Made by a program: the position numbers and the translations under genes
Shown: piece by piece, positions 71-6,087 of the stretch
How the letters are laid out: each line of letters starts with the position of its first letter
How positions within the stretch are numbered: position 1 is the stretch's first letter
IMG/VR virus record: IMGVR_UViG_2651869750_000012
Origin: a virus
Lineage: Duplodnaviria; Heunggongvirae; Uroviricota; Caudoviricetes
DNA length: 7,129 nt
Reading direction: 5' to 3' (one strand)
The notes under the pieces: model-generated
Database searches by the model: none
Told to the model about the DNA's origin: nothing
The model's input: only the letters and a program-made list of their open reading frames with translations

Positions 71-460
71 TCAGGCGGCTGCACCCGCCGTTTTCTCGTA
101 CTTACTGATAGTGATCTCGACCTTCCCTCCCGGGATAACCGGTCCCCACTCAACCAGCATTCTTTTCACCTGACTGTCGTCTTCCCACACACCCGCATGG
201 GTCAGGGCGTCAAACAGCGCCTTGTTATAGTTGTCCAGATCGCGGATCCGGTTATCCGGAGGAAACAACACGATCTCCACTGAAGCAGGTGCCGACGTTG
301 GTTTTGGCAGACGACGTAACTGCTCAACTATTGCTGCACACGCCGCGCTCTGGAATTTGCGCCCCGCCGCGCTTATCAGGCTCTTACCAGCAAATGCCCC
401 TTTGTTGGGGTGTCGCCAGTACGTGTTCACGCTGGGCGGGAAAGGCAGGATCAGCTTCAT
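71..460 (-). CDS. rusA: Crossover junction endodeoxyribonuclease RusA (Holliday junction resolvase)
   Basis: 129-aa ORF. N-terminal LPFPPSVNTYWRH and central PDNRIRDLDNYNKALFDALTHAGVWEDDSQV align motif-for-motif with my recollection of E. coli RusA ([44 protein letters not shown]), including the catalytic acidic residues. The ATG (460..458) overlaps the upstream MTase stop as ATGA. Confidence 0.9.
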   Translation of the reverse strand: MKLILPFPPSVNTYWRHPNKGAFAGKSLISAAGRKFQSAACAAIVEQLRRLPKPTSAPASVEIVLFPPDNRIRDLDNYNKALFDALTHAGVWEDDSQVKRMLVEWGPVIPGGKVEITISKYEKTAGAAA

Positions 461-1110
461 GCCACCATCTCCCTGACCAGTTTTTCTGCCTGCTGGCGAA
501 CCTGCGCCAGAAAGGCCTCACCACATGCCTCAAGTTCATCGCGCCCGATGTAGCTGATTGCCGGTCCCTTCCAGGTCTTGTCAAAAACAGCAATAGCACC
601 AGCGAAGAAAGCGCCTGTCGGCACCTGCTTCTCATCCTTCGGGATAAACCAGGCAGGCAGTTCAAAACCAATACGCCCGCGAATAAAAGCAATATGGTCC
701 GCATCTTCCGGCCACCACACTTCGCTGGTGGCAGCTTTGATCAGGAAAACATAGCGCCCGCCCTTATCACGCATGGCACTGGCATGTTTCATGATGTAAC
801 GCATGCCGGTGATGTATTGCCCCTCATGCTGACTGGCGCGGCTGTATGGAGGATTACCAAAGGCAGCACCTTTAAGCTCCACAAGGCGTTCTGACCAGTC
901 ATGCGCCAGCGCGTTGTCTTCCGCCGTGTAATACGCGGCACATTTGGCGTTATCACCGTCAGTGAACAGATCCAGAACAAACGGGCCAAACAGGGTGTTA
1001 ATTCCCCAGAAAATGTTGTCCGGCGTGCGCCACTGATCACCCACTTCCTTCAGTTCATGGGCTGGTTTGTTCCGCAGTTCCACCAGCTCCTGGCAATATT
1101 TATTACTCAT
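457..1110 (-). CDS. Phage Dam-family DNA N6-adenine methyltransferase (orphan; no nuclease partner in the window)
   Basis: Contains the amino-MTase catalytic motif GNPPYS and WRTPDNIFWG..FGPFVLDLFTDGDNAKCAAYYT, which I recognise as typical of the phage T1-type Dam family. Start is ambiguous: the ORF track begins at a GTG at 1143, which would overlap the upstream gene by 34 nt; I prefer the ATG at 1110..1108, which overlaps the YfdN-like stop as TAATG and gives 217 aa. Confidence 0.85.
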   Translation of the reverse strand: MSNKYCQELVELRNKPAHELKEVGDQWRTPDNIFWGINTLFGPFVLDLFTDGDNAKCAAYYTAEDNALAHDWSERLVELKGAAFGNPPYSRASQHEGQYITGMRYIMKHASAMRDKGGRYVFLIKAATSEVWWPEDADHIAFIRGRIGFELPAWFIPKDEKQVPTGAFFAGAIAVFDKTWKGPAISYIGRDELEACGEAFLAQVRQQAEKLVREMVA

Positions 1111-1604
1111 TAAGCCCCCACGTAATTCCCTGACAGATACCACTCATCACCCGATACAGCGCGCTTGCTGCTTTTCCGTAAACACTGCTCACGACGCGCC
1201 AGAAAATTGTTTCGTTCTGGCTGGGAGTGGCTTTCACGGAATGCCGCCATCCACACCGTTGCAGCACGACGGTATAGGCCCCTGGACTCCAGTTCTTCCG
1301 CCTGGCGGGTCAGGCACAAAATCACCCGGGGATCGTTAGTGCCGACATAGAAATTGCGCACAGGTCTGGTTTCACGAACTGGTTGTAGTTCCGGCTCCTG
1401 CGCTCTCTCAGTCAGGCGTGGGAAATGTCTGCGTGTATCTCCTTCACAACGGTGAGCCACACGCCCACTCTGACGTAACTTGCTTGCTGACTGCAGAACG
1501 CGCTGCCGTGAGTAACCTGCAAAAGCATCCGCAATGTCTCCGGAAGTACACCCCGGATGGGCTTCAATGAATTTCTGAACGTCATTCAAAAGACTCATGA
1601 TCAC
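1110..1604 (-). CDS. yfdN: YfdN-like protein: N-terminal winged-helix-like region plus C-terminal PerC-like domain (putative transcriptional regulator)
   Basis: 164-aa ORF. The C-terminal AEELESRGLYRRAATVW resembles the PerC/Pch signature as I recall it (A-E-x-L-E-x-K/R-G-L/F-W/Y-R-R-A-A-x-x-W). Length matches my recollection of K-12 YfdN (164 aa); the gene symbol is from memory, not a search. Track start is GTG 1604 (GTGA overlap with the O-like stop); an ATG at 1598 preceded by AGGGGG is an equally plausible start. Confidence 0.65.
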   Translation of the reverse strand: MIMSLLNDVQKFIEAHPGCTSGDIADAFAGYSRQRVLQSASKLRQSGRVAHRCEGDTRRHFPRLTERAQEPELQPVRETRPVRNFYVGTNDPRVILCLTRQAEELESRGLYRRAATVWMAAFRESHSQPERNNFLARREQCLRKSSKRAVSGDEWYLSGNYVGA

Positions 1605-2419
1605 CCCCTGAATCCTGCCGGGATCTGGCTGTAGTCCACGTTGTCGTAACTGGCTTTGAAGTACGGGTCCTCGCGTCTGGCTGCAGATATCGCAGGAACT
1701 TCCCAGGATTCTTCGAAATGACGATCCGGACCAAAGAACGTGACAGCCTGTTTCACAAATTGTGTGCCGCTGTTACCCATCGCAGATACCCAGCCCGCGT
1801 AGCGTTTCACACCTTCCAGCATGGTTTCGGGGTTTACCCCCTCGTTCAAACGGGCTTTCCAGGCTTTGAAGGCTGCAGATTTTGAATTGCCACCAGCACG
1901 TTTGGGATATGCCAGCCATGCCTGCTCAAACTCCGGAGAGTATTCCGGTCGGTTTGAACGAACTCGCACGGACTCATCAACTGATGCACCAACAGCTATT
2001 GGTTCATTGACTGGTTCTTTGACTGGTTCAAAAGAGTGACTGGTTCTGGGTGAATCTCCTGCACTACCCCCTGGTGCAACTCCTGCACTACCTGGTGAAT
2101 TTGCTGCACCAGATAGTGAATTATTTGCACTACCCCCTAGTGAATCTCCTGCACCATCCAGATGAAGGAGATAGATATTACTTGAGTTACCTTTTTCACC
2201 TTTCCGGGTGACTTTTTTTACCAGCCCGGACTCACAGAGGGCCGCAATATGATTCATCACAGAACGTTTGCTAATCTCGCACTGATCAGCGATATGCTGA
2301 TAGCTGGGCCAGCACTCACCCTGATCGCTGGCATTATCAGCCAGCTTGATCAGAACCAGTTTTCGCAATGGATTACCCACTCGAATTTTCATCGCTTTAA
2401 CCATCAGCTCCATACTCAT
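1601..2419 (-). CDS. Lambda O-like replication initiation protein (N-terminal HTH iteron-binding-like domain, Gly/Ser/Ala-rich linker, C-terminal YdaU/DnaT-like domain)
   Basis: 272-aa ORF. N-terminus (LRKLVLIKLADNASDQGECWPSYQHIADQCEISKRSVMNHIAALCESGLVKK) has the winged-helix pattern of lambda O N-terminal domains. C-terminus (AWLAYPKRAGGNSKSAAFKAWKARL...QFVKQAVTFFGPDRHFEESW) matches what I recall of the YdaU/DUF1376-type replication domain. ATG at 2419 is preceded by GGAGG at 6 nt and overlaps the upstream stop as ATGA. The middle of the gene carries iteron-like DNA repeats. Confidence 0.8.
   Translation of the reverse strand: MSMELMVKAMKIRVGNPLRKLVLIKLADNASDQGECWPSYQHIADQCEISKRSVMNHIAALCESGLVKKVTRKGEKGNSSNIYLLHLDGAGDSLGGSANNSLSGAANSPGSAGVAPGGSAGDSPRTSHSFEPVKEPVNEPIAVGASVDESVRVRSNRPEYSPEFEQAWLAYPKRAGGNSKSAAFKAWKARLNEGVNPETMLEGVKRYAGWVSAMGNSGTQFVKQAVTFFGPDRHFEESWEVPAISAARREDPYFKASYDNVDYSQIPAGFRG
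2008..2160. repeat. Iteron-like direct repeats inside the O-like gene (candidate phage replication origin)
   Basis: Three copies of TGACTGGTTC at about 2008-2017, 2020-2029 and 2037-2046. Then five imperfect 20-25-bp direct repeats with consensus about tGGTGAATcTcCTGCACtACCcc at about 2047-2071, 2072-2092, 2093-2110, 2115-2137 and 2138-2157, followed by a more AT-rich stretch at 2161-2220. The position in the inter-domain linker of the initiator mirrors ori-lambda inside gene O. Confidence 0.45.
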
Positions 2420-2652
2420 GCTGCACCTCCGAGATGCTTCATGTTTTTTCCGGAGCGAAAGGCTATAAGCGGCATACTGACGCGGTAATTACGGCCCAGC
2501 GGTTCACAAATCACCTTCTGGCATTCACGGTCAACCAGGCTAACACGTAGAACATGCCCTGCAGGCGTGGTGTACCACTGCCCAACTGTAGGAATTGATG
2601 TTTTTTTACGCTGAAGTAAACGGCGAATATTGAGGCTCAACGGATTAAGCAT
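2416..2652 (-). CDS. Hypothetical 78-aa protein, translationally coupled between the 278-aa gene and the O-like gene
   Basis: ATG at 2652..2650 preceded by GGAGGG at 7-nt spacing; start overlaps the upstream stop (ATGCTTAA) and stop overlaps the O-like start (ATGA). I recognise no motif. Confidence 0.55.
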   Translation of the reverse strand: MLNPLSLNIRRLLQRKKTSIPTVGQWYTTPAGHVLRVSLVDRECQKVICEPLGRNYRVSMPLIAFRSGKNMKHLGGAA

Positions 2653-3481
2653 GACGATGCCCTCCGCTGATATTCAGGAGACGGTGAATATGAAAATTAG
2701 CCTTATCCGCCAGACGAATACGTTCAGCCTGCAAGTTAAGAAGGGTTTCTACCAAAACCTGATGCGCCTGGGGATCCGAAAGAGTTACCTTGCGCAGAGC
2801 ACGTAGTGCAGTTGTTACATAACTGAGTTTATGTAAGTCTTCATCATTCAGACGAGTGAGGGCTGGGACAGTAGCCATGATGGCAGCCTCCTTGATCGGT
2901 GAAATACTTCCACCACCGGAAACGCCAATTTCGCTGGTGGTGAACTGAACGGGGTTGGCGTAACCGGTGATCAAGGAAACCGGCGCATCTTTCGATGCCC
3001 CCGCCCAGCCCACCATAACTTTGATGTGAGCAAATGCGGACGATAAAAAAGACGCTGGCGCGTCATATATCGCCTTGATCAATTCCAGGACGCCAATCCC
3101 GGCACCCGCTTTATAAGGTGCCTGAACAGTGTAACGTCCCGGAATGGCAGAATCAATGTGCTGGTGGTCCTTCACACTCAACAAAATCACGCCTGAATTT
3201 CCACAAAGGACTAAAGCACTCATGCGGGTAGTCTTTGCGAAGATAGATAACGCGCTGTGTTTCTGGCTCCCAACGAATAACATGAACATAAAGTCCTCTT
3301 CCGTCACGAAACCAGCGGTTAAGTTCCTGCACAACTCGCCCCCCACAGTCAGGTAAAGTTCTCTGTGGTTACTTACAGCCAGGTGATTTGGTAATCTGCA
3401 TTCATGCCGTAACAACAGGTGTTCAGCGACGCTGACCACCAGCTGTTGCGACAAACGGTTATTTGCCGTTAAACTGTTCAT
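2645..3481 (-). CDS. Hypothetical 278-aa protein of unknown function (predicted alpha/beta, Gly-rich loops AGAGIG and GVSGGGS)
   Basis: Long ORF in the operon sense strand; ATG at 3481..3479 overlaps the CII-like stop as ATGA. It fits none of the lambdoid replication or regulatory families I know, and lacks Walker A, PP-loop, NPPY and HEPN motifs. The alternating hydrophobic strand/helix pattern with glycine-rich loops suggests a Rossmann-like fold, but that is inference only. Confidence 0.7.
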   Translation of the reverse strand: MNSLTANNRLSQQLVVSVAEHLLLRHECRLPNHLAVSNHRELYLTVGGELCRNLTAGFVTEEDFMFMLFVGSQKHSALSIFAKTTRMSALVLCGNSGVILLSVKDHQHIDSAIPGRYTVQAPYKAGAGIGVLELIKAIYDAPASFLSSAFAHIKVMVGWAGASKDAPVSLITGYANPVQFTTSEIGVSGGGSISPIKEAAIMATVPALTRLNDEDLHKLSYVTTALRALRKVTLSDPQAHQVLVETLLNLQAERIRLADKANFHIHRLLNISGGHRHA

Positions 3482-4072: not shown

Positions 4073-4273
4073 TTAATCTTTCGGATAGATATCCGGTCTT
4101 AAGTCATATTTCGTAATTGCACCTGACGTGCATTGCTCAAGTTTTTTAGCCAGCACAAAACTGGCTTTTTTATAACCATTGAAAACCAGCCGTAAGTAGC
4201 CTGGTGTTGAGCCAACTTTTCCGGCCAACTCGCCCTGCTGTTCTTTGGTTAAAGAGTCCCAATACGCTTTCAT
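4073..4273 (-). CDS. cro: Cro-like repressor (YdaS/Cro-CI family HTH protein, 66 aa)
   Basis: The track ORF 4073..4576 overlaps cI antisense. The internal ATG at 4273..4271 is preceded by GGAGG (reverse complement of 4284-4288) and gives a 66-aa protein, MKAYWDSLTKEQQGELAGKVGSTPGYLRLVFNGYKKAS...KYDLRPDIYPKD, with an HTH and the C-terminal LRPDI motif I associate with YdaS-type Cro proteins. It lies divergent from cI across the operator region. Confidence 0.75.
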   Translation of the reverse strand: MKAYWDSLTKEQQGELAGKVGSTPGYLRLVFNGYKKASFVLAKKLEQCTSGAITKYDLRPDIYPKD

Positions 4274-4363
4274 ACAATATGTACCTCCGATATACATATT
4301 ACATGATTGAGATGAACCTTCAAGATACTTGTACCCTATCGGTACAAAGGTTTTAATTTCGTT
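4274..4363. promoter_or_regulatory. cro-cI intergenic control region: divergent promoters (PR/PRM analogues) with operator-like 19-bp palindromes
   Basis: 7-5-7 palindromes with half-site ATGTAYC: 4279-4297 ATGTACC-TCCGA-TATACAT; 4329-4347 TTGTACC-CTATC-GGTACAA (perfect); weaker 4312-4330 ATGAACC-TTCAA-GATACTT. Candidate leftward promoter: -35 TTGAAG (reverse complement of 4318-4323), 16-nt spacer, -10 TAATAT (reverse complement of 4296-4301). Candidate rightward promoter: -35 TTGTAC (4329-4334), 17-nt spacer, -10 TTTAAT (4352-4357) ending 6 nt before the cI ATG, which would make cI mRNA leaderless or nearly so, as at lambda PRM. Promoter calls are by eye. Confidence 0.5.
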
Positions 4364-5038
4364 ATGAAAACAGTCCATGACATCCGGCGGTCTAACGCCA
4401 GAAAACTGAGAGATGGTGTTGGCGGGAATTCTTCCTTTGCCACCATGATTGATCGCGAGCCAACCCAGACCAGCAGGTTTATGGGAGATGGTGCTACTAA
4501 AAATATCGGTGACAGCATGGCACGGCACATCGAAAAATGTTTCGACCTGCCTGTCGGATGGCTTGATCAAGAACACCAGACAACAAACATCACAAAAAAA
4601 CCTGATGTTTCAATTACTAACAAACAAATAACGTTAGTCCCTGTCATATCATGGGTACAGGCCGGAGCATGGAAAGAAGTTGGCTATTCTGAGGTTGATT
4701 TGAGCACAGCAGAAACTTATCCCTGCCCTGTACCCTGTGGCGAAATGACTTATATCTTGCGGGTGATTGGTGATTCAATGATTGATGAGTACCGCCCGGG
4801 AGACATGATTTTTGTAGATCCTGAAGTCCCTGCCTGCCACGGTGACGACGTTATTGCATTGATGCACGATACAGGCGAAACCACCTTTAAGCGGTTGATA
4901 GAAGATGGAACACAGCGTTACCTCAAAGCATTAAACCCAAACTGGCCTGAACCTTACATTAAGATCAACGGTAATTGCTCTATAATTGGTACAGTAATTT
5001 TCTCAGGAAAACCAAGAAGATACAAAATAAAGGCCTAA
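4364..5038 (+). CDS. cI: Prophage cI repressor (N-terminal HTH, C-terminal LexA-like S24 autopeptidase)
   Basis: 224 aa. The C-terminal domain aligns closely with my recollection of P22 C2: ISWVQAG-AW vs ISWVSAG-QW (Ala100-Gly101 cleavage site), VIGDSM (Ser138 nucleophile), FVDPEV, TFKRL (Lys176), LNPNWPEPYIKINGNCSIIG vs LNPQYPMIEINGNCKIIG. Confidence 0.9.
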   Translation: MKTVHDIRRSNARKLRDGVGGNSSFATMIDREPTQTSRFMGDGATKNIGDSMARHIEKCFDLPVGWLDQEHQTTNITKKPDVSITNKQITLVPVISWVQAGAWKEVGYSEVDLSTAETYPCPVPCGEMTYILRVIGDSMIDEYRPGDMIFVDPEVPACHGDDVIALMHDTGETTFKRLIEDGTQRYLKALNPNWPEPYIKINGNCSIIGTVIFSGKPRRYKIKA

Positions 5039-5049
5039 TCAATATTTAT

Positions 5050-5072
5050 AACCTGCTTCGGCAGGTTTTTTT
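5050..5072 (+). terminator. Rho-independent terminator downstream of cI
   Basis: Stem AACCTGC (5050-5056), loop TTCG, stem GCAGGTT (5061-5067), then a T-run (5066-5072), 12 nt after the cI stop codon. Confidence 0.7.
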
Positions 5073-5076
5073 ATAC

Positions 5077-5121
5077 TTGACAATGTACCCTTGAGATACA
5101 TAATGTATCTAAAAGAAACAT
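5077..5121 (+). promoter_or_regulatory. Strong sigma70-like promoter (early-left, PL analogue) overlapped by two tandem operator-like 19-bp palindromes
   Basis: -35 TTGACA (5077-5082), 16-nt spacer, -10 CATAAT (5099-5104). Operator-like sites 5083-5101 ATGTACC-CTTGA-GATACAT and 5103-5121 ATGTATC-TAAAA-GAAACAT share the half-site seen in the cro-cI intergenic operators. An 8-1-8 palindrome AGATACAT-A-ATGTATCT (5094-5110) bridges the two sites. Confidence 0.55.
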
Positions 5122-5541
5122 GTCACAGGCAAGATTAAACAAAATTTGGTTGTAACACGGCGTATGGCACATGCGTCGTTAGCGGTCTGGGGACGTTAAA
5201 GGGGACAATCCACTCCTTGCTCGGGCAAACAAACCAGGTAGCCGGAATGTGCAAGTCAATGATGATGCTGATAAGACGCCTAACCAGCGTGGCGGTTCGG
5301 TTTGACACCTGGGAAGAGACCAGGGTGCAACGATGAGGGCATTTATGGAACCGCGACAAAGTGTGGTGCCGTAACTGGCTAAGTGCTCTCAGCGTTGTGG
5401 TGAATGCGCAGGCTGATGCGCGAAAGACATTGCAGCTAATGCGGAAAAGAGCTGTTCGGCGGGGCAATTAAACGCCCGTGAGAGTCTGAAATAACCGCAA
5501 GCCGGAGATCAGCACCGGTCACCACAACAGCCACTGCTTTG

Positions 5542-5588
5542 GCGGTACCAGTTTGTACACTTGCTTCCGGCTGGTACCGCTCTTTTTA
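5542..5588 (+). terminator. Intrinsic terminator inside the early-left leader, upstream of the YfdP-like gene
   Basis: Perfect 10-bp GC-rich stem GCGGTACCAG (5542-5551) / CTGGTACCGC (5571-5580), 19-nt loop, followed by TCTTTTTA (5581-5588). Confidence 0.55.
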
Positions 5589-5589
5589 C

Positions 5590-5674
5590 AAAACAGAGAA
5601 GAGCATCACCGGACGACGGGCTCATAACCCAATCCATCCGGGCGGCTGCCACCGCAGGTGTTCTTCTCTGTTTT
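5590..5674 (+). other. Long-range 15-bp inverted repeat (putative RNA stem enclosing a ~55-nt structured loop) in the leader just upstream of the YfdP-like ribosome-binding site
   Basis: AAAACAGAGAAGAGC (5590-5604) is complementary to GTTCTTCTCTGTTTT (5660-5674) with a single G-U position; the enclosed loop contains shorter GC stems (for example GCGG 5642-5645 / CCGC 5652-5655). Confidence 0.4.
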
Positions 5675-5724
5675 GTGGAGAAACCAACCGACCTTGCAGG
5701 GTCGATATGATGAGGAGCAGCAAA

Positions 5725-6087
5725 ATGGCTAGCGAACGCAGTACTGATGTGCAGGCATTTATCGGGGAGCTGGACGGCGGCGTATTTGAAACCAAAATCG
5801 GCGCAGTTCTCAGTGAGGTCGCTTCCGGTGTGATGAACACGAAAACCAAAGGGAAGGTCTCACTCAATCTGGAAATCGAACCGTTTGATGAGAACCGTGT
5901 GAAAATCAAACACAAACTCTCATATGTTCGCCCAACTAACCGCGGGAAAATTTCCGAAGAAGACACCACCGAAACGCCGATGTATGTCAATCGCGGTGGT
6001 CGCCTGACTATTCTGCAGGAAGACCAGGGACAATTACTGACTCTTGCCGGTGAACCTGACGGAAAACTCCGCGCAGCAGGTCATTAA
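5725..6087 (+). CDS. yfdP: YfdP-like prophage protein of unknown function (120 aa)
   Basis: The track ORF 5539..6087 begins at a TTG and runs through the terminator hairpin. The internal ATG at 5725 is preceded by GAGGAG (5712-5717) at 7-nt spacing and gives 120 aa, matching my recollection of K-12 YfdP length. Gene symbol is from memory, unverified. Confidence 0.65.
   Translation: MASERSTDVQAFIGELDGGVFETKIGAVLSEVASGVMNTKTKGKVSLNLEIEPFDENRVKIKHKLSYVRPTNRGKISEEDTTETPMYVNRGGRLTILQEDQGQLLTLAGEPDGKLRAAGH

Follow-up and report, generated by a model that had tools for sequence, protein, structure and literature searches.

Recurring structured RNA modules, including a tRNA-shaped motif, in the leader before yfdP of a lambdoid Escherichia coli prophage

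What does a prophage without an N gene keep in a leader of about 620 nucleotides (nt) between its early-left promoter and its first gene? The question is raised by the IMG/VR virus record IMGVR_UViG_2651869750_000012, a stretch of 7,129 nt (here called the window, meaning the whole stretch) which belongs to a lambdoid E. coli prophage and showed 100% identity to strain FDAARGOS_1059. The leader under study occupies positions 5106–5724 upstream of yfdP. A preliminary description, made from the sequence alone, had offered three roles for it: RNA-based read-through of a terminator as in HK022, attenuation, or a functional prophage non-coding RNA (ncRNA). The last of these agreed best with the analysis, in which covariation-supported modules and a published 193-nt RNA at 5393–5586 were found. 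The leader was shown to yield a discrete RNA in vivo and to be non-coding, and comparison of sequences showed it to be a mosaic of independent structured RNA modules which recur separately in unrelated phages. We consider it probable that the leader is a non-coding RNA operon ended by a terminator, including a motif K that is released as small RNA (sRNA) sRNA-17, rather than a passive 5′ untranslated region. The elements of the leader are given below.

5157–5324, plus strand: module A, structured RNA domain, ~168 nt (covariation, covariance model)
5327–5398, plus strand: hairpin cassette dom1, a long stem GCAACGAUGAGGGCA / UGCUCUCAGCGUUG with variable inner sequence
5394–5528, plus strand: motif K, a four-helix tRNA-like junction (covariance model R1, pair statistics)
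5394–5402 with 5520–5528: helix P1 of K, GUUGUGGUG / CACCACAAC
5403–5405: linker AAU of K
5406–5421: hairpin P2 of K, GCGCA-GGCUGA-UGCGC
5422–5500: variable arm P3 of K
5501–5519: hairpin P4 of K, GCCGG-AGAUCAGCA-CCGGU (CCGGY in the family), which runs straight into the 3′ strand of P1
5393–5586, plus strand: sRNA-17, consisting of motif K and the terminator (full-length primers with 0 mismatches)
5541–5587, plus strand: intrinsic terminator, a 13-bp stem (5541–5553/5569–5581) followed by CUUUUU
5588–5676, plus strand: module D, a hairpin cassette with a stem of 18–20 bp
5689–5724, plus strand: small hairpin (5689–5704), Shine-Dalgarno sequence GAGGAG (5712–5717), and spacer to the yfdP ATG at 5725

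The RNA seen in cells is sRNA-17 of E. coli K1 RS218, a 193-nt RNA encoded upstream of yfdP in an mEp460-type prophage (Sun et al. 2020, PMC7719688). The authors delimited this RNA by 5′ and 3′ rapid amplification of cDNA ends (RACE); it gave a Northern signal, rose in the stationary phase, and was without an Rfam homologue (PMC7719688). Its position in the window was determined using the published primers and probes (Table S2 of PMC7719688), all 13 of which could be mapped, 12 with 0 mismatches and one with 1. The 5′ RACE primers and the Northern probe were antisense to the plus strand, and the 3′ RACE primers were sense. The 5′ end of sRNA-17 was located 1 nt before P1, inside the dom1 stem, and its 3′ end at the U tract of the terminator; whether a discrete RNA ends near 5588 had been named earlier as a point to check, and the published 3′ RACE end is 5586. 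The qRT-PCR (quantitative reverse transcription PCR) amplicon of the same authors corresponded to 5144–5539 and spanned A, dom1, and K, which indicates a contiguous A-to-K precursor transcript. A promoter scan of the window revealed no promoter-like site near or upstream of 5393.

In the published view, sRNA-17 is transcribed from a promoter of its own, which ArcA represses, and regulates yfdP, yfdR, glnP, fdnG, fim, and others in trans by conventional base pairing. The Northern signal, the stationary-phase induction, the ArcA gel shifts on 5144–5393, and the transcriptome changes and virulence phenotypes of the deletion strain (PMC7719688) are consistent with it. However, the 'promoter' fragment 5144–5393 corresponded to module A and dom1, another structured RNA, without a promoter-like site, and ArcA was bound only at 20–80 µM (PMC7719688). 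In the deletion strain a cat cassette stands in place of 5419–5536, and yfdP and yfdR were up, 95-fold (PMC7719688). Furthermore, K was conserved as a structured RNA with invariant paired hairpins and a covarying P1, and not as a single-stranded seed beside a terminator. Given the layout of the pKD3 cassette, cat should, as we assume, read towards yfdP, and therefore the 95-fold rise of yfdP and yfdR is most simply explained by polar read-through; the strongest 'target' of the sRNA-17 work, yfdP, would probably be a polar artefact. On this balance, we hold the published view to be highly unlikely.

The structure of motif K could be supported by pair statistics. The copy in the window contained every element of the motif, namely a covarying P1, AAU, P2, a variable P3, P4, and complementary loops, the P2 loop GCUGA pairing with the P4 loop UCAGC. 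Among 67 distinct K cores, 94.4% of the cells were paired, and 11 pairs with 123 cells were changed on both sides (0/500 shuffles). Seven of the nine P1 pairs covaried, for instance as ttgtgg/ccacaa, gattgga/tccaatc, atgcaga/tctgcat, and gagcggtc/gaccgctc. G-U pairs were common in P1, A-C pairs were rare, and non-pairs were nearly absent from the inner helix; the G-U and A-C frequencies indicate that the folded strand is the plus strand, as RNA. Pairing between the two loops was supported by four independent compensatory changes:

L066: P2/P4 loops GGUGA / UCACC
L248: P2/P4 loops GUUGA / UCAAC
L253: P2/P4 loops GCCGA / UCGGC
L261: P2/P4 loops GCCGA / ACGGC

The other loop variants comprised wobble-compatible cases and three mismatched ones. 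Loop-variant scans returned 12 and 10 contigs only, which indicates that the canonical loops dominate. Seeds were fetched by exact words (a 21-mer for K), which inflates the apparent invariance, and the variant scans control for this in part. The covariance model R1, which was built from 34 natural sequences, matched the copy in the window along the whole model with 85.8 bits (E = 2e-23) and also detected diverged K copies in phage P1 and SfV.

The P3 arm ranged from 33 to >200 nt in length. One P3 type was 88–96% identical across Enterobacter, Klebsiella, E. coli, N4-like, Pseudomonas, and Erwinia phages with unrelated flanks. In one K copy (L097, 7014–7203), P3 seems to contain a complete tRNA gene (..GTGGTAGCTCAGATTGGGAGAGC..GGTTCGATTCCGG..). 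Over all copies, ARAGORN predicted two tRNAs inside K on the same strand, or three when both strands were counted.

Module A, the first structured domain of the leader, starts with hairpin H1 (5158–5162 with 5174–5178), whose loop GCACAU forms a pseudoknot with a distal AUGUGC. Helix H2 surrounds a variable hairpin and is followed by H3 and H4 (loop GAAGAGA). In alignment A3, consisting of 14 diverse representatives with <92% identity, 98.9% of the cells were paired and nine pairs were changed on both sides, while 0/500 shuffles were as good. Covariance model R2 gave 147.9 bits for module A of the window and 142–144 bits for the copies of phage P1 and phiV10. The exact core of the module, GGTAGCCGGAATGTGCAAG, was present in at least 120 viral contigs of IMG/VR.

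The dom1 cassette had a folding energy of −32.6 kcal/mol (z = −4.75). Its 3′ strand overlaps the 5′ strand of P1 at 5394–5398, and in many loci about 5 nt are common to both. A complement of at least 15/16 nt abutting K was found in 45/115 loci, compared to 5/115 with shuffled upstream sequence.

Downstream of K, a strong intrinsic terminator had been placed at 5542–5588 in the preliminary description, and it was recovered at 5541–5587 with −21.2 kcal/mol and z = −4.1, 0/200 shuffles being as stable. It combines a GC-rich hairpin, a U tract, and the published 3′ RACE end at 5586. The consensus terminator scanner, which is limited to 8-nt loops, missed it because its loop is 15 nt long. As a minor observation, AAAAGAGCUGU in the P3 arm of K (5445–5455) was 91% complementary to the 3′ strand and U tract of this terminator, ACCGCUCUUUU (5576–5586). 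This may represent competition with terminator folding or a coincidence; the same P3 is found in phage P1 without this terminator.

The terminator is followed by module D. What had been recognised as a 15-bp long-range inverted repeat is real and longer than described, with 25-nt arms at 5588–5612/5652–5676 and −46.2 kcal/mol (z = −6.3). In 20 variants its stem was 93.6% paired, and five pairs were changed on both sides. The inner part of D holds a conserved mini-hairpin, ACGGGCUCAUAACCCAAUCC, which is also present in the cassettes of phage P1. When linked to yfdP, D regularly has an intrinsic terminator on its 5′ side and GGAGAAAC plus a small hairpin on its 3′ side, and this composite recurs. 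In the window, the small hairpin at 5689–5704 was no better than shuffled sequence (z = −0.47).

The coding potential of the leader was evaluated. On the plus strand between 5039 and 5538, the only open reading frames (ORFs) were of 39 (5217–5336) and 36 amino acids (aa) (5361–5471), in agreement with the earlier statement that no plus-strand ORF of at least 60 aa precedes 5539. A 182-aa frame with a TTG start at 5539 extends yfdP upstream in the same frame. The 110-aa antisense frame noted earlier does exist at 5135–5467. A Pfam search of the leader frames gave no match for any of them. Across 14 diverse homologues the 39-aa frame was broken by stops or frameshifts, module lengths varied by non-multiples of 3, and stops occurred in all antisense frames in 4/14. 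The 39-, 36-, 49-, and 110-aa frames could thus be rejected as genes, being broken in homologues and without a family match, and the leader 5106–5724 was shown to contain no conserved ORF.

An alternative is that the stretch encodes a small protein, such as an N-like peptide rich in Arg, or that its role is confined to the DNA, as a module-boundary recombination sequence. The 36-aa frame does end in RKRAVRRGN, and CACAAC/GTTGTG boundaries enclose different cargo in phage Ayreon and in the window. However, the search for a conserved small protein, which the preliminary description had named as a possible refutation, found only frames that are disrupted in homologues and match no family, and the 36-aa frame spans dom1 and K, in whose place Ayreon has another element. 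The covariation is, moreover, tolerant of G-U and strand-specific, and an RNA is observed in vivo, which speaks for RNA. We regard either as having a negligible chance of being right.

The mosaic nature of the leader was revealed by BLAST against phage records and E. coli genomes with plasmids, in which sub-segments matched different unrelated elements separately, including further separate matches to Pseudomonas phages:

~5144–5400: also in phage P1, between tRNA-Ile and ban, and in phiV10/epsilon15-type phages
~5381–5529: also in a phage P1 variant, directly after tRNA-Thr, and in ~97-kb plasmids
5382–5422, 40-nt core: also in T1-like, Vi01-like, Edwardsiella, Erwinia, and Cronobacter phages (~92% identity)
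5539–5730: the most widespread part in E. coli, always with yfdP

The modules mostly occurred apart. Module A was present within 1.2 kb upstream at only 9/118 K loci, and K downstream at only 5/87 A loci, by which a single large RNA made of A, dom1, and K could be ruled out. A YfdP-like ORF lay 3′ of the D motif in 18/47 cases. The roughly 600 nt had been treated as one unit serving yfdP, and this part of the earlier account did not hold: A and K are present elsewhere without yfdP, and only the terminator and hairpin D (5541–5676) accompany it.

In phage P1, the modules lie among the tRNA genes of the ban operon, and between tRNA-Thr and tciA hairpin cassettes and copies of K follow one another as an array. 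On the other strand of this region, the reference record has the genes plp and upl (AF234172, L004, 963–1532; record 69472–70041). In the same locus, the K model matched at 1308–1409 (72 bits) and 1569–1692 (31 bits) on the strand of the ban operon. The plp and upl coding sequences may be mis-calls over an RNA array. In Ayreon (L001, ~2855–2975), the same helix P1 frame, GTTGTGG...CCACAAC, surrounds a UAAUCCGCGAAAUGGCGCGG... element instead of K, and an element 'GTTGTGGTAATTGCGGCT' similar to that of Ayreon was seen 3′ of module A in the P1-like contigs L158, L178, and L183. It seems that the stem boundaries stay fixed while the cargo between them is exchanged.

Motif K is widely distributed. 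Its exact 21-nt core was detected in at least 120 contigs of IMG/VR and in at least 120 matches among bacterial contigs taken at one genome per species. Among the matches listed, the hosts belonged to the Gamma-, Beta-, and Alphaproteobacteria and included Pseudomonas, Pantoea, Erwinia, Yersinia, Halomonas, Massilia, Pandoraea, Achromobacter, Comamonas, Thauera, Martelella, Pelagibacterium, and a Rhizobium metagenome-assembled genome; some of these labels are those of metagenome bins and possibly mis-binned. The core was also seen in bins labelled Flavobacterium, Coriobacteriia, Geobacteraceae, Phycisphaerales, and Acidobacteriota (L279, L282, L291, L305, L326), which reflects either wrong binning or a still wider host range. 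The K type of the window was present in 845 of 5,426 complete E. coli genomes (~16%), with 237 places on plasmids, and was never annotated in the E. coli genomes carrying it. The carriers include Stx strains, neonatal-meningitis strains, and P1-type plasmids.

The genomic contexts of K were diverse. A cI-like repressor preceded K on the same strand in 33/121 copies, and 16 copies were situated ~1 kb upstream of an endolysin. One copy (L012) lies between two terminators downstream of a PR′-like promoter, and some (as in L018) between the P22-type boxA/boxB and the start codon of an N-like gene. In a viral contig (L020), K follows a putL-like RNA of HK639 or CobraSix type after ~10–15 nt, and in Salmonella phage S9-5 (L459, ~400–560) a short K2-like variant follows put at the same distance. 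K is thus regularly found beside put, and also beside nutL. Other copies were located in tRNA/ncRNA islands of virulent phages. In Klebsiella phage Madison (L007), a stretch of ~2.6 kb without an annotated gene (437–3045) holds K at 1517–1750 and an Rfam STnc100 match at 2838–3043 (48 bits against a gathering score of 47), which suggests an ncRNA island in this 158-kb virulent phage. Genes and tRNAs next to K mostly share its strand, as did 40/45 tRNAs within 1.5 kb. A fixed association with tRNAs could be rejected, only 24/220 copies having one nearby. Terminator-like sites within 120 nt after K were found in 13–18% of the copies against a background of 6.7% (2–2.7-fold enriched), and an obligatory tie to a terminator was dismissed on the same 13–18%.

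Module A is usually the first element transcribed after a cI-like repressor gene; 56/106 copies lie ~200 nt beyond the end of such a gene on the same strand. In the window, the module begins ~46 nt after the inferred transcription start, in some phages (L152, L136) at +1 of a TTGACA-N18-TACATT promoter, and in phage P1 2 nt after tRNA-Ile. A boxA was present 3′ of module A in L198, L149, and L161.

These observations can be combined into the non-coding RNA operon that we favour. On induction, the repressor-controlled promoter at 5077–5104 would make a precursor of ~480 nt which stops at 5541–5587. In lysogens, read-through from the same-strand repressor gene probably adds transcription, and this would explain the published expression in uninduced cultures. 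The precursor would carry three independently folding and horizontally shuffled modules, namely A, the hairpin cassette, and K. In view of the lack of a promoter-like site upstream of 5393, the 5′ end there would result from cutting of the precursor at the dom1/P1 junction, and K with the terminator hairpin would be released as a stable RNA of about 194 nt, which is sRNA-17. The terminator would form the 3′ end of K and at the same time insulate the yfdP operon, keeping it off, whereas hairpin D and the small hairpin would belong to the own leader of yfdP.

Once released, K might act in trans, its invariant P2/P4 kissing-loop face docking on a host component conserved throughout the Proteobacteria, with P3 as an exchangeable specificity or cargo arm. 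This last step, in which K would be a trans-acting tRNA mimic, is put forward tentatively, as the likeliest of the functions considered for K. Candidate partners would be RNase P, the ribosome, RNA polymerase, or a tRNA-targeting defence nuclease, and P3 would define the 'species' of the RNA. It is equally a tentative proposal that K, and separately A, found unrecognised pan-proteobacterial phage RNA classes, K being either tRNA-shaped and active on a conserved host machine or a self-processing ribozyme.

A different explanation would be a cis-acting transcription element, in which A and/or K binds its own RNA polymerase (or Nus factors, Rho) and confers resistance to terminators or Rho, such that 5541–5587 is read through without N. 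The window agreed with the earlier description in lacking an N-like antiterminator. No boxA (YGCTCTTTAACAA) could be found anywhere in the window within 2 mismatches (boxB was not searched separately), and the annotation of the identical prophage contains no N-like gene, yet a strong terminator stands before the first gene. The location of more than half of the A copies (56/106) directly after a cI-like gene on the same strand, some of them at +1 of a PL-type promoter, is consistent with such a role, as are the 2–2.7-fold enrichment of terminator-like sites within 120 nt after K and a near-invariant sequence over many host classes, which fits an RNA-polymerase-like target.

The closest known system of this kind is HK022 put; like module A, it is a structured part of the nascent RNA directly 3′ of an early promoter, and its lambdoid phage has no N. 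Module A lies at the position that put takes relative to the promoter. Its H1 (CGGCG/CGUCG, with a loop ending in CAUG, then AGCG) agrees exactly with a part of putL stem I, and the common segment CGGCG...CAUGCGUCG..AGCG, which is without statistical support, includes a U reported to contact the β′ zinc-binding domain (PMC9378689). The shared 9-mer is absent from HK022 putR. Put RNAs are ~70 nt long and consist of two stems. Stem II has the conserved core GGCGGGYUCAGGAUGAACGGCAAU, which is absent from module A. An nhmmer profile of eight put RNAs (HK022 putL and putR plus six others) gave no match in the leader or in 101 module-A segments, and neither R2 (filters off) nor R1 (default filters) matched at HK022 putL or putR. 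Membership of a put-like family, as suggested earlier, was therefore unsupported by the put profile and by the A and K models, and K coexists with put; a put-like action of module A is possible as a functional analogy only.

The comparison with lambda nut led in the same direction. The leader has the position of the lambda/P22 N leader, and P22-type relatives carry K between boxA/boxB and the N start codon; unlike lambda, the window has neither boxA nor an N gene, and K is unrelated to nut. In other phages, K coexists with nutL/N (L018), putL-like RNAs (L020, S9-5), and Q-type late leaders, including the PR′-type leader with two terminators (L012), and because of this coexistence K does not replace nut or put. 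Also against the cis-acting element are the boxA that follows A in three contigs, the presence of K within small tRNA units in virulent phages, a setting in which antitermination would be pointless, and the stop of the lysogen RNA at the terminator. Taken together, we judge it unlikely.

K was further compared with tRNA. It has the connectivity of a cloverleaf in shape only, with P1 as the acceptor, a 3-nt linker, P2 as the D-like, P3 as the anticodon-type, and P4 as the T-like arm. A contact between D-like and T-like loops is common to both, and in K this elbow is a 5-bp Watson-Crick kissing helix. P1 has at least 9 bp, there is no CCA, and AGCC (5529–5532) follows P1 while the RNA runs on into the terminator. 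K occupies genomic slots of phage tRNA genes, sometimes adjoining or enclosing a tRNA. ARAGORN (tRNA/tmRNA) predicted 0 genes in the window. The covariance-model scan and comparative folding recommended earlier were carried out and gave no known family, but covarying modules across homologues: a scan with Rfam 15 at E up to 10 matched no family in 5114–5724, including tRNA, tmRNA, ribozymes, GOLLD, ROOL, and YrlA. On nine related loci, the Rfam scan gave only sub-threshold T-arm-type tmRNA matches upstream of K.

Among known phage RNAs, T4 species 1/rnaC and species 2/rnaD are, like K, stable RNAs from a tRNA-cluster setting; the K model did not match either of them. GOLLD and ROOL are likewise structured RNAs of phages and prophages, in many cases close to tRNAs, at times with a tRNA inside, and with peripheral arms that vary, whereas K and A are much smaller modular units and occur in Proteobacteria, not mainly in Firmicutes or lake metagenomes. 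Pas sRNAs (PMC13192938) were considered and set aside as different, being Escherichia-restricted, of Hfq type, and located in late regions. A literature search by the core sequence string found no paper. The sRNA-17 paper itself does not describe the four-way junction with kissing loops or the likely polar effect, calls A and dom1 a promoter, and confines the RNA to a few enterobacteria, whereas K was found here across Proteobacteria and in virulent phages. The RNA at this locus is already known as sRNA-17; to the extent of the searches made here, the structure and family distribution of K, module A, the cassette architecture, and the reading as an RNA-gene array are new.

The tRNA-like features could also mean that K and the hairpins are processing or insulator sites, cut by RNase P, III, or E in polycistronic early or late transcripts, and that the RNAs have no function of their own; cleavage would detach nut or put RNA from the message, and the newly made ends would carry a stable structure. 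The start of sRNA-17 at 1 nt before P1 in the dom1 stem, the tRNA-like topology of K, and the abutment of modules on tRNA genes in phage P1 and phiV10 are all in line with this, and hairpin stems of 16–20 bp have the size of RNase III substrates. The RNase III site of lambda lies between nutL and the N start codon, the very slot in which K is found. However, a cleavage site would not need ~40 invariant nucleotides across three proteobacterial classes, nor P3 arms ~90% identical between Pseudomonas and E. coli phages, and the released RNA accumulates to a Northern-visible level. This possibility is accordingly rated as quite unlikely.

A self-cleaving ribozyme class trimming phage ncRNA or tRNA precursors would be another way to obtain a discrete 5′ end at the edge of the motif. 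Variable stems, few invariant nucleotides, and a loop-loop tertiary contact are a typical ribozyme pattern. Hammerhead, twister-sister, pistol, and theta ribozymes have a phage and tRNA-linked context, to which that of K is similar. Nevertheless, no Rfam ribozyme model matches, the invariant nucleotides lie in helices and kissing loops and not at the junction, and no conserved cleavage dinucleotide is evident. The probability of such a ribozyme is very slight.

Several observations weigh against the favoured RNA operon with a released, trans-acting K. A tRNA was present within 500 nt of only 24/220 copies. The invariance of P2 is partly imposed by the exact-21-mer seed search. The 5′ strand of P1 is common to K and dom1, and these mutually exclusive pairings have the look of a cis-switch. 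A and K are preferentially found in leaders of long operons, after PL, nutL, and putL-like elements and before lysis genes, which fits a role in cis. RACE did not separate primary from processed ends, and 5393 could be a transcription start. With respect to novelty, an unnamed entry among 10,006 viral candidate RNAs published in 2023 (PMC10690425) could already cover A or K.

If the proposed reading is true, phages carry a second, tRNA-like class of small-RNA genes beside true tRNAs. K is present in ~16% of complete E. coli genomes and yet absent from Rfam and from genome annotation, and the wide conservation of a 21-nt stretch, set in a tRNA-like scaffold that covaries, implies that its partner equals the machinery of translation or transcription in conservation. 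K would offer a testable handle on the use of tRNA-like RNAs by phages, a question that dates from the 'species 1 and 2' RNAs of T4. The analysis also shows that where a long leader behind an early or late phage promoter looks 'empty', it can be a shuffled RNA-gene array.

The leader lies in the following gene setting. On the plus strand, the order is repressor, repressor terminator, promoter, the leader without an annotated gene, yfdP, and a DUF2303 YfdQ protein. The minus strand carries the early-right operon with cro-like ymfT, ymfL, a P1-type C4/IsrK RNA region, replication genes, a methylase, and RusA. The features upstream of the leader are as follows:

4364–5038, plus strand: LexA/cI-like repressor gene (ymfK-type) with a Peptidase_S24 domain; the PGAP annotation of the identical genome agrees
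5050–5075, plus strand: intrinsic terminator of the repressor gene, a 7-bp stem followed by a T run
5077–5104, plus strand: early-left (PL-type) sigma-70 promoter TTGACA-16-CATAAT, with 11/12 consensus positions
5095–5109: palindromic operator GATACATAATGTATC, a perfect palindrome overlapping the −10 element

The promoter stands directly 3′ of the repressor terminator, and the corresponding promoter is annotated in phage Ayreon; transcription is inferred to start at ~5111. A site related to the operator was found at 4271–4285, near the divergent promoter, and operator-type sites gave three matches against 0.14 expected. At the other end of the leader, the Shine-Dalgarno sequence previously assigned to a YfdP-like gene at 5712 agreed with GAGGAG at 5712–5717 and ATG at 5725; the yfdP gene extends over 5725–6087, and its start codon concurs with the NCBI PGAP annotation of the 100% identical genome.

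Two minor observations were made on the minus strand. C4 antisense RNA (2933–3020, 82.3 bits) and IsrK (3045–3121, 64.2 bits) were both detected above the Rfam gathering score, inside a mechanical 278-aa ORF (2645–3481); the pair represents a P1/P7-type c4-ant immunity module (Gifsy-1 IsrK type) in a lambdoid early-right operon. At ~2040–2160, within the ORF 1601–2419 of a helix-turn-helix replication-type gene, several direct GGTGAATCTCCTGCAC-like copies could be observed, which, judged by eye, have the look of origin iterons.

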